A stretch of DNA of 64,000 nucleotides from Octopus vulgaris (lineage: Eukaryota), in contig OX597826.1 of assembly GCA_951406725.2 (NCBI GenBank), positions 53,506,001 through 53,570,000 of the forward strand, given 5' to 3'. A program made the translations under genes and the position numbers. Positions 34,201 through 37,200 of the stretch are shown here, in pieces; within the stretch, counting starts at the first letter, position 1, and the number at the start of each line of letters is the position of its first letter. Below the pieces are notes generated by a model that did no database searches, was not told the origin of the DNA, and saw nothing but the letters and a program-made list of their open reading frames with translations.

Positions 34201-37200
34201 TATATTTACACACACTTATGTATGCATGTTAGCGTGCTTGTATTTGCCAACAGTTGTTGGTTTGTTTACGTCACAGTAAGTTAGCAGTTTGGCAAAAGAG
34301 ACCAGTAGAGTAAGTACCAGACTTTAAAACAAAAACGTACTGGTGTTGATATTTGTTTGACTAAACCTCTTCAAGGCATTGCCCCAGCATGGTCACAGTT
34401 AAACGACTGTAAAACACATAAAATATAAATAATCCTTTCTCCTGGAAGCACAAGGCCTCAAATTTGGGGAAGGGATTAAGTCGATTACATCGATCCCAGT
34501 GCGTAACTGGTACTTATTTAATCGACCCCAAAAGGATGAAAGGCAAAGTCGACCTCGGCGGAATTTGAACTCAGAACGTAGCAGCAGATGAAATACCTAT
34601 TTCTTTACTATCCATAAGGGGCTAAACACAGAGAGGACAAACAAGGACAGACAAATGAATTAAGTCGATTATATCGACCCCAGTGCGTAACTGGTACTTA
34701 TTTAATCGACCCCAAAAGGATGAAAGGCAAAGATGACCTCAGTGGAATTTGAACTCAGAATGTAATGATGGGCGAAATATCGCTAAGAATTTCACCCAGC
34801 GGGTTAACAATTCTGCCAGCTCACCGCCTTAAATAAAAGATAAATAATAAAAAGGATATTTGGAAGACATAGAGAGAGAGAGGGTGGGTAGGGAGAGGTG
34901 AAACAAACAAAAGTGACTGCAAGCCAACCTGCATGTGAAAAATCATAAGCTCATTGGCTAACTGGTTGCGACGCTGAGAAACATCCAGCTTCTGGTACAT
35001 GACGCACTGTAACAAGAAAAAAAAATGAAAAACAACAATAATGTAAGGGTGAGTGCAGGACATGCAAGCAAGAGCTAGTACAACAATGGGACGGGTTGTT
35101 TCCTGGGTTACCTTCATGTGATACATCATCAGTTCGTTTATCAAATTGTTCCTGGCTTGGGAATCTATCACTTTGTTGTACATAAGAGACTGGAAAAGAT
35201 GACAATTTCGCAGTTAAGACCAGCTGAACGCATGTCATCTATTTTCACATCAAACATCTCCAACTAATGCAGTTTGGCTGTATCTGTCAATTTTTCACTG
35301 GGTTACTATTACAACAATTAACACATGAGAAACATAACAATTTAATAAACTATATTAGTAAACGAGAAAACAGTCTATGTGACTTTAGCAATTATTCGGA
35401 CTGATTCGGTAAAGATCGATCTCTCTCTACCTTCATTTAAATTATTGAGATTAGATGATACATGGATATGGTAGACAAAAAGAAAAAAAAAAATCAATTG
35501 GAATTAATCAATTGTAACAAATAAATAATTAGTAAAGAACAGTACAAATAGATCAATAAATAACTGTTTGCGTGTTTGGATAAAATAGTAAAAACAACTG
35601 CATGTATCTGTACATATACATATATATACAAACATATATGTCTGTGTCTGTGTTTGTATATATATATATATATATATATATATATGTGTGTATGCATATA
35701 TATATATATATGTATATGTATATATATATATATATGTCTATGTATATATATATATATATATATATATATATATAATAATAATAATAAATATTAGGGAATA
35801 AATCTAAATTTACAGGGAAAAATCAGATTTAGGATTGAATCCAATTTTATAGTAAAATATAATATAATATTAATTAGAGACAAAACCACTATTATGCAAA
35901 TCAAACAAAGAAAGACTTAATCCAATACATAAAAAATTTTATATAAATTAAATATAATTAAGATATCCACTACGATCGTAGTGGATATCTTAATTATATT
36001 TAATTTATATAAAAAATTTTATGTATTGGATTAAGTCTTTGTTTGATTTGCATAATAGTGGTTTTGTCTCTAATTAATATTATATATATATATATATATA
36101 TATATATATATATATATATATATATATAATAAAATATTACTCATTATCTTTTATTAAATTTTTAATACTTTTGATATATATTTAAAATAATATAAATTAA
36201 TTAATTTTATGTATTGGCTTAAGTTTTTCCTTGTTTGATTTGCCTAATAGTGGTTTTATCTCTAATTTAATATAATATATATATATATATATATATATAT
36301 ATGCATGTGTGTTTTCACACACACATACACTTGGTATTTATAATCTTCTTACAACATGGCCATGTGTTATAACTCTTAATTCTTCAAATAAGACTCTTAA
36401 AACTCTTCTATGAAGAGATGAGAGGTATTAATATGTGCCAGGTTTTTATCCAGCATTGAAGAATGTAGTGATGACCCAGCTGGCATGAGACAGAAAGGAT
36501 CTGGAGAGGATTGAGTAATTAGTAATAATAACATGAAATATACAATATATATAATATATATATATATATATGTTGCATTTTGGGAGGGCCATATTGGCAA
36601 TAAGAACACACACATTGGTTGCATTTCACTTCAGTTTTATTATGAGTTAATTAAACATTTAGTTATTCGATTAAATTAATTATTGATTAATTACTGATTA
36701 GTTTGTTAAACTTTAATCACAGCCTTCCCCCCTTTTACACACTCCATGTTCTTTACTATGTGAGTAATGGTTAATTCTGAATTTTATTCAGTCAATTTTA
36801 TTTACATAGTGTGTGTCTGTTGTTTAATTTTTAACTGGAGTGGTGGTGCTGCTACTCTGTGTGTGTGTTGTTGCATGTGATCATGAATGTCTATGTGTGG
36901 GGTGTTGTGAGTTGAAATTTTGGGACTTTTGAGATCAGACAATGTTGCTTACACAAACCAGTGTATGTGTGTGTGTGTGTGTGTGTGTGTGTGTGTGTGT
37001 GTGTTCATGTGTGTATGAGCATATGCATGTGTGAATTTATATGTTGTTTTTTTCTTTTGTTTTGCTTGAGACTTATAATTTGTTTTTTCCTTGTCCATTC
37101 AATATGTTCAATGCAACAACCCCCCCCACACACATACATCCATGCACAACCAGCACTACCAACACCACCTTGATCCCAATTTTTAAAAAAATATCATACA

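Follow-up and report, generated by a model that had tools for sequence, protein, structure and literature searches.

Predicted RNA helices at two alternative linker exons of octopus PDE2

Among described cases in which RNA pairing bears on mutually exclusive splicing, the closest to the locus treated here is human ATE1 with its exons 7a and 7b (R1R3/R3R4). In the portions of the ATE1 study drawn on here, pairing hinders one 3′ splice site, a single inter-exon element pairs now with one acceptor and now with the other, and competing structures are noted to be seldom conserved across long distances (PMC7797038). As far as those portions describe it, ATE1 shares with octopus PDE2 a pair of tandem-duplicated exclusive exons, a pairing (predicted in octopus) that hides a 3′ splice site together with its pyrimidine tract, a long downstream intron (about 30 kb in ATE1 and 27 kb in octopus PDE2) and a possible dependence on co-transcriptional folding, while in octopus the partner of the acceptor tract lies close by on its upstream side, and the coding end of exon A takes part in a separate predicted helix (PMC7797038). 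By analogy, the octopus hairpin described below is likely ATE1-like in its action. The second group of relatives comprises the docking/selector cases Dscam1 (exons 4/6/9), 14-3-3zeta, Mhc and MRP1, together with srp, whose pairing is bidirectional; in the sections of PMC6071210 and PMC4691838 used here, these likewise combine tandem exon duplication with intronic complementarity. Unlike the docking/selector arrangement characterised in those sections, the octopus locus revealed no single site with per-exon selectors, and its acceptor would be hidden rather than its exon presented (PMC6071210, PMC4691838). Because the partner is not shared between the two exons, we do not file the locus as a docking/selector system.

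At the protein level the relevant comparison is vertebrate PDE2A (3IBJ, 9LRN), which has the same GAF-GAF-catalytic order and in which exon A corresponds to linker residues 551–576, as covered in the excerpts of PMC13095499 and PMC6392808 used here. Human PDE2A is described there, in a review, as having three variants directed by their N-termini; unlike these N-terminal variants, mollusc PDE2 varies the copy of the linker (PMC13095499, PMC6392808). The part of a 2025 review cited here treats passage of the GAF-B cGMP signal along the linker helix, and on to the active site, as a “thesis awaiting confirmation” (PMC13095499). Molluscs hold two natural versions of this helix, with class-spanning differences, that are directly expressible and comparable. 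Our literature search, which took in few subscription journals, found no paper on exclusive exons in mollusc PDE2, and a term search of PMC9258296 returned nothing relevant to them; the exon pair is already implicit in public annotation.

The window, i.e., the whole 64,000-nt stretch of Octopus vulgaris DNA that was analysed, carries on its minus strand an AT-rich, repeat-laden animal gene whose exon candidates contain GAF and PDE motifs. A frame spanning exons A and B gave one protein match, P0001, named at its source PDE2 isoform X2 of Octopus bimaculoides, whose domains are GAF-A, GAF-B and PDEase_I and whose best match is PDE2A. Mapping P0001 back with tblastn retrieved 12 exons in the window, matching at 96–100% across their bodies, and found one of them again as a 62% copy, and the top PDB matches of the exon A/B frame were 3IBJ and 9LRN, both human PDE2A (residues 551–581). 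By domain content and best match, the gene is thus PDE2, the cGMP-stimulated PDE. All features are given on the minus strand. The constitutive exon at the end of GAF-B occupies 48028–48143 (tblastn of P0001, 100% over residues 518–556; acceptor at 48143), and its donor chooses between two acceptors 12.8 kb downstream. These belong to exon A (35112–35189; protein mapping and RNA contig 32 of run X20) and its paralogue exon B (34929–35006; protein mapping and RNA contigs 31 of X20 and 24 of X19), which are separated by a 105-nt intron and encode the linker helix between GAF-B and the catalytic domain. The next constitutive exon, also placed by tblastn of P0001, lies 27 kb away at 7804–7923. Exons A and B are both 78 nt long, have AG/GT ends and share one frame, i.e., they have the equal length and phase of a tandem duplication, and the A/B stretch is single-copy in the genome (G000). 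Pfam gave no match on either exon alone, Rfam gave none over 34700–35500 at E up to 1, and ARAGORN reported nothing in the region.

Exons A and B are real alternatives, each spliced alone between the same neighbours, which bears out what an earlier sequence-only reading of this DNA had proposed for them under the names 7a and 7b. Separate A and B isoform records exist in two Octopus species, and X20 contains two 135-nt contigs, each holding a single exon flanked by 29 nt on its upstream and 28 nt on its downstream side, at depths of 7.2 and 3.9. This length marks them as the two branches of one 31-mer bubble (a flank of 30 minus the 1 and 2 letters common to the A and B ends). Four of 24 listed runs were compared with the stretch; of these, X19 and X20 were taken as RNA, which the exon-shaped contigs fit. 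In X19, a contig joins the stretch at B’s acceptor and extends 45 nt into the intron behind B, as would fit a choice of acceptor made before B’s donor is used. No A-B joint was listed among the contigs of the two RNA runs, and since contigs drop rare variants some A+B double inclusion may occur. Nine mollusc protein records hold two exon copies in a row and one reads through the intron, and these are probably gene-model (annotation) artefacts. A chiton model (P0022) reads through the equivalent of the A-B intron.

Exclusivity may be imposed sterically, when no more than about 50 nt separate the upstream donor from the branch point, or by nonsense decay, when double inclusion shifts the frame. 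At this locus the best candidate branch motifs stand at +62 and later, and the frame is kept: the 105-nt A-B intron, viewed in 34821–35213, is open in frame and A+B double inclusion adds 156 nt, so that nonsense decay would spare transcripts that retain the intron or include both exons.

The distribution of the exon pair was assessed in a set of 130 stored proteins. Cephalopods, bivalves, gastropods and a chiton are all represented by both the A and the B type, with A always preceding B where one model holds both; molluscs have two linker copies, and some clams three (A1, A2 and B; proteins P0017 and P0077). Records from outside the molluscs have a single linker copy, except P0014, which has a larger repeated segment. 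In one non-mollusc group (loci L013, L024 and L040), the linker-coding stretch is interrupted by an extra short intron. The two types differ at linker position 12, which is H in 16/18 B-type exons and never has H as its top residue in A-type exons, at position 8 (mostly I versus mostly Q) and at position 22 (M versus I). In a tree of 26 columns, with A/B labels assigned beforehand by the last residue, a branch (97/85) sets the A-type exons apart on one side; the best tree does not unite the B-type exons, yet a single B-type clade is not rejected (p-AU 0.28). The simplest reading of these 26 columns would be a single duplication near the root of Mollusca.

Immediately upstream of exon A, the minus-strand segments 35246–35233 (GAAAAUAGAUGACA) and 35204–35193 (UGUCAUCUUUUC), the latter being the pyrimidine tract of exon A, form 8 Watson–Crick pairs and, across a 2-nt bulge, 4 further pairs. 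This 8+4-bp stem over the A acceptor is present exactly as the sequence-only reading claimed, as is the branch-point-like CUUAAC in its apical part, which falls at 35218–35213 in the hairpin loop and is 69–95% unpaired in folds. By its likeness to the branch-point consensus, CUUAAC is a candidate branch point, whose branch A would stand 25 nt before the exon (−25). The hairpin is both the MFE and the centroid structure of 35250–35190 (61 nt; −15.3 kcal/mol, z = −2.59, 3/200 shuffles equally stable), and in an 81-nt frame z is only −1.37 (22/200 shuffles). Opening positions −15 to −3 of the exon A acceptor costs 8.70 kcal/mol, the highest among 13 acceptors in the window (next 4.39), and it stays top when 20 further octopus acceptors, ten of them with uncertain boundaries, are added (highest 7.33, with an uncertain boundary, then 4.33). 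Against 150 shuffles keeping the last 18 nt, this occlusion has p = 0.026. Stem length by itself is not rare among acceptors, as contiguous helices of at least 8 pairs occur at 4/21 control acceptors, all with G-U pairs and none with 8 Watson–Crick pairs. Probabilities (P) are those of central pairs, as forced-helix values require every pair and so understate each helix. In prefix folds at 37 °C, the hairpin has P 0.62–0.96 for ends from 35190 to 34895 and 0.22–0.34 thereafter; at 18 °C, P falls to 0.24–0.35 for four prefixes. Across 40 settings of folding window and temperature it ranges from 0.17 to 1.00, with 0.17–0.24 in several long 37 °C folds. The hairpin is predicted by folding to hide the pyrimidine tract of exon A.

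In two related octopods, organisms D and E, all 54 nt of the hairpin are unchanged; such invariance is expected 19% of the time by chance in E, and invariance is not covariation. Organism E has 0/143 substitutions in 35190–35332 versus 7/148 in 35333–35480 (p = 0.008, boundary chosen post hoc), and exon B together with 34928–34871 is also free of substitutions. A search with a degenerate exon-end pattern returned 40 loci in metagenome contigs, two of which (L012 and L018) look molluscan, and 0 matches in the sets of genome contigs and viral contigs. None of the 40 loci holds a second full exon copy internally, which says little, as the two clam loci likewise have none. L018 and L012 overlap at 98%, and their two A-type exons are nearest those of Mya, Dreissena and Ruditapes, which points to a clam with A1 and A2. 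At the A1 acceptor of this clam, the corresponding tract is covered by an 11-bp hairpin (P 0.73–0.75 in a 680-nt fold), which alone is not significant (z = −0.46, p = 0.066). With the arms set against those of octopus, the 8-bp core of the clam hairpin shows two two-sided changes and a single change of G-C to G-U, in a register that was hand-chosen in two sequences (5′ arms by MAFFT, 3′ arms by eye). When the whole segment is aligned by MAFFT, the clam 5′ arm falls on the octopus branch motif and not on the octopus 5′ arm, and the clam and octopus introns upstream of the exon fail to align (p = 0.62). No such hairpin was found at the clam A2 acceptor, and five single-exon orthologues from outside the molluscs have no acceptor stem over 6 pairs. 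Taken together, these sequence comparisons allow the clam A1 hairpin to count as modest support for the octopus acceptor stem.

An exact copy of the 13-nt 5′ arm of clam A1 lies in the A1-A2 intron as part of a 35-column match (p = 0.001), while A1 and A2 differ at 10/26 third codon positions. Copying of an arm with its exon is what the model of docking/selector origin predicts, as set out in the section of PMC6071210 used here. In L018 and L012, a 31-nt upstream element was copied with A2 and now sits about 400 nt from the A2 acceptor; its continuation pairs with the element behind the A1 branch-like motif (P 0.42–0.80 in folds).

A second predicted helix joins a 10-mer near the end of exon A (35122–35131) to an intronic 10-mer (35036–35045) that lies 0–4 nt behind a branch-like motif, in octopus CUCAC at 35049–35053, 62 nt behind A’s donor, with a similar motif in the same place in both clam copies. 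It reaches P ≥ 0.77 in 39/40 folds and belongs to the MFE structures of octopus, L012 and L018. MAFFT aligns its elements in these three unaided; the intronic 10-mer stands at +67, +83 and +77 in the three copies, and 29/30 cells are paired over them, compared with 20–67% in a slid control. Positions facing A remain U and those facing U or G vary A/G or C/U, so that six pairs are changed on one side and zero on both; a shuffle control is uninformative here, as one side is invariant. At least 9 matches behind a branch-like motif occur at a rate of 0.0006–0.001 per position. None of 31 other loci has a 10/10 match, and in the 7/31 with 9/10 none lies behind a branch-like motif. The clam post-donor introns score 46 and 42 against the octopus A-B intron, ranking 1 and 2 of 33 loci, and the best of 33 other clam windows scores 35. 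On the other side of the ledger, 35041 differs in organisms D and E and breaks one central pair, the segments have overall z of 0 or positive, and in either clam copy an alternative partner is available closer to the donor. No exon directly follows the intronic element in clam, which weakens a steric reading of this helix. On comparative grounds, the second helix is better conserved than the acceptor hairpin. Behind clam A2 (L012:526–660), likeness to the octopus A-B intron ends in a tract and CAG at about +123; no exon B follows in L012, and the tract and CAG are possibly a decoy or a recursive splice site.

We give roughly even chances to a model in which the hairpin acts as a brake on acceptor A and the second helix guards against double inclusion, rather than the hairpin serving as half of a clean two-state switch. 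The hairpin would fold once transcribed and slow the recognition of acceptor A, whereby acceptor B, made 183 nt later, could compete for the donor 12.8 kb upstream and the head start of A would be offset. Breathing, proteins or partial refolding onto exon B would free A and set the A:B ratio. The second helix would enclose A’s donor and B’s likely branch point in one 76-nt loop and so disfavour A-to-B joining, against which neither frame (78 + 78 nt) nor spacing (62 nt) would guard. The result would be a pair of PDE2 isoforms distinguished by the helix through which GAF-B presumably passes cGMP activation on to the active site. The wider claim, that two RNA helices kept from octopus to clams have run the choice of PDE2 linker since the root of Mollusca, is offered tentatively. 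If true, exclusive splicing would here be under a control by RNA structure of unusual age, and nature would have run an experiment on the linker’s part in cGMP activation; the octopus-clam helix would be an exception to the usual loss of competing structures over long distances, in a compact model of less than 400 nt from a phylum for which our literature search turned up no comparable case.

The strongest rival, which we regard as rather unlikely, attributes the choice to protein factors or to branch-point strength and treats the hairpin as incidental purine/pyrimidine pairing. The A-B intron does contain UGCAUG (35061–35066), an Rbfox-type motif. The long stems at 4/21 control acceptors, the weak z in the wider frame and the breadth of the 143-nt conserved block in organism E, which extends beyond the arms, all suit such an explanation. 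Against it, UGCAUG is not above chance (5 matches versus 2.6 expected in L001) and was not seen in the clam introns examined, the exon A acceptor ranks 1/33 for occlusion with a stem at the same acceptor in clam, and the one-sided changes of the second helix are the signature of a pairing and not of a motif.

An unlikely alternative is a switch in which the hairpin trades places with exon B: the loop side pairs with 34971–34960 in exon B (CUUAAC bulged) and the 5′ arm with 34921–34898 in the intron behind B’s donor, which would hide B and free the A tract. This state is the 37 °C MFE of 35330–34860 (P about 0.75), it trades against the hairpin across folds, and the sequences concerned lie within the stretch of exon B and 34928–34871 that is unsubstituted in organism E. 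Its probability, however, varies from 0.00 to 0.82 with folding window and temperature and is ≤0.36 in 19/20 settings at 18 °C, both duplexes are ordinary in a scan of the strand (ranks 112 for exon B and 42 for the intron), and the switch requires the refolding of a stem made 250 nt earlier. The 5′ arm pairs at −12.9 kcal/mol with the A tract and at −6.9 kcal/mol with the B tract, the latter pairing being absent from the ensemble. Neither one element serving both exons nor mutually exclusive pairings each favouring one exon, as docking-site/selector or ATE1-type control would entail, were found. An 8-bp pairing of 35236–35229 with 35066–35059 that would loop out A (−11.5 kcal/mol) was rejected, with P below 0.08 in the fold.

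Far less probable is the switch of the sequence-only reading, in which a GAAA common to the hairpin and to an element II leaves either the A acceptor or the B donor hidden. With coordinates reconstructed in this analysis, element I (35268–35279) is complementary to 34933–34922 across B’s donor and element II (35243–35249) to 34940–34934. The complementarities exist, ranking 2 and 1, respectively, among about 6,390 windows, albeit selected after the fact, and a base inserted in organism E falls at the internal mismatch of element I (35272). The GAAA of the 5′ arm does lie inside element II as a matter of sequence, but element II has P ≤ 0.08 in 40/40 folds (≤0.07 in prefix folds) and overlaps just the 4-bp foot of the hairpin and not its 8-bp core, so the proposed competition is not supported. 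Element I (P 0.00–0.96 by folding window) is nested around the hairpin, and in the prefix ending at 34920 both form together (0.92–1.00 and 0.99–1.00); it rises and falls with the hairpin, whose opening in long folds opens element I too. As element II is unpopulated and element I co-forms with the hairpin, the overlap cannot carry a two-state switch in these folds. The claim that the second state hides the B donor fails to separate the states, since this donor is 73–83% paired in 40/40 settings, either through element I or through an alternative local stem between an exon B 7-mer (34953–34959) and 34928–34922 (P 0.94–0.96; 0.00–1.00 by folding window). Partition-function and prefix (co-transcriptional) folding thus did not reproduce the two-state switch, and what survives of that reading is a hairpin predicted to hide the A tract at a pair of alternative exons.

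A-to-I editing is common in coleoid cephalopods, and the pairings might be ADAR substrates kept for editing near the exons, with splicing affected secondarily, given that conserved intron blocks adjoin the exons and a long near-perfect palindrome lies 0.7 kb upstream; this is scarcely credible, as the RNA contigs over A and B differ solely at two sites that are also found in the same organism’s DNA and the helices are short, both recurring in a clam.

The palindrome just mentioned, at 35848–36291, has 73-nt arms that are 95% complementary and 50-nt arms that are 100% complementary, with similar text near 42919–43555; it is likely a small transposon and, once transcribed into the pre-mRNA, a long dsRNA hairpin 0.7 kb ahead of exon A. 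A SINE-like repeat of high copy number is present twice in 34400–34835, starting about 95 nt behind B’s donor, and further into the intron behind B (31428–32086) is a direct repeat of about 350 nt with near-identical frames. Elsewhere in the genome (G000:C24:27.90–28.85 Mb), about 12 intronless frames of about 690–1,170 aa resemble PDE2 in its GAF and catalytic portions, at about 30%. Most of them are clustered within 130 kb, in what looks like an expansion of intronless GAF-PDE genes.
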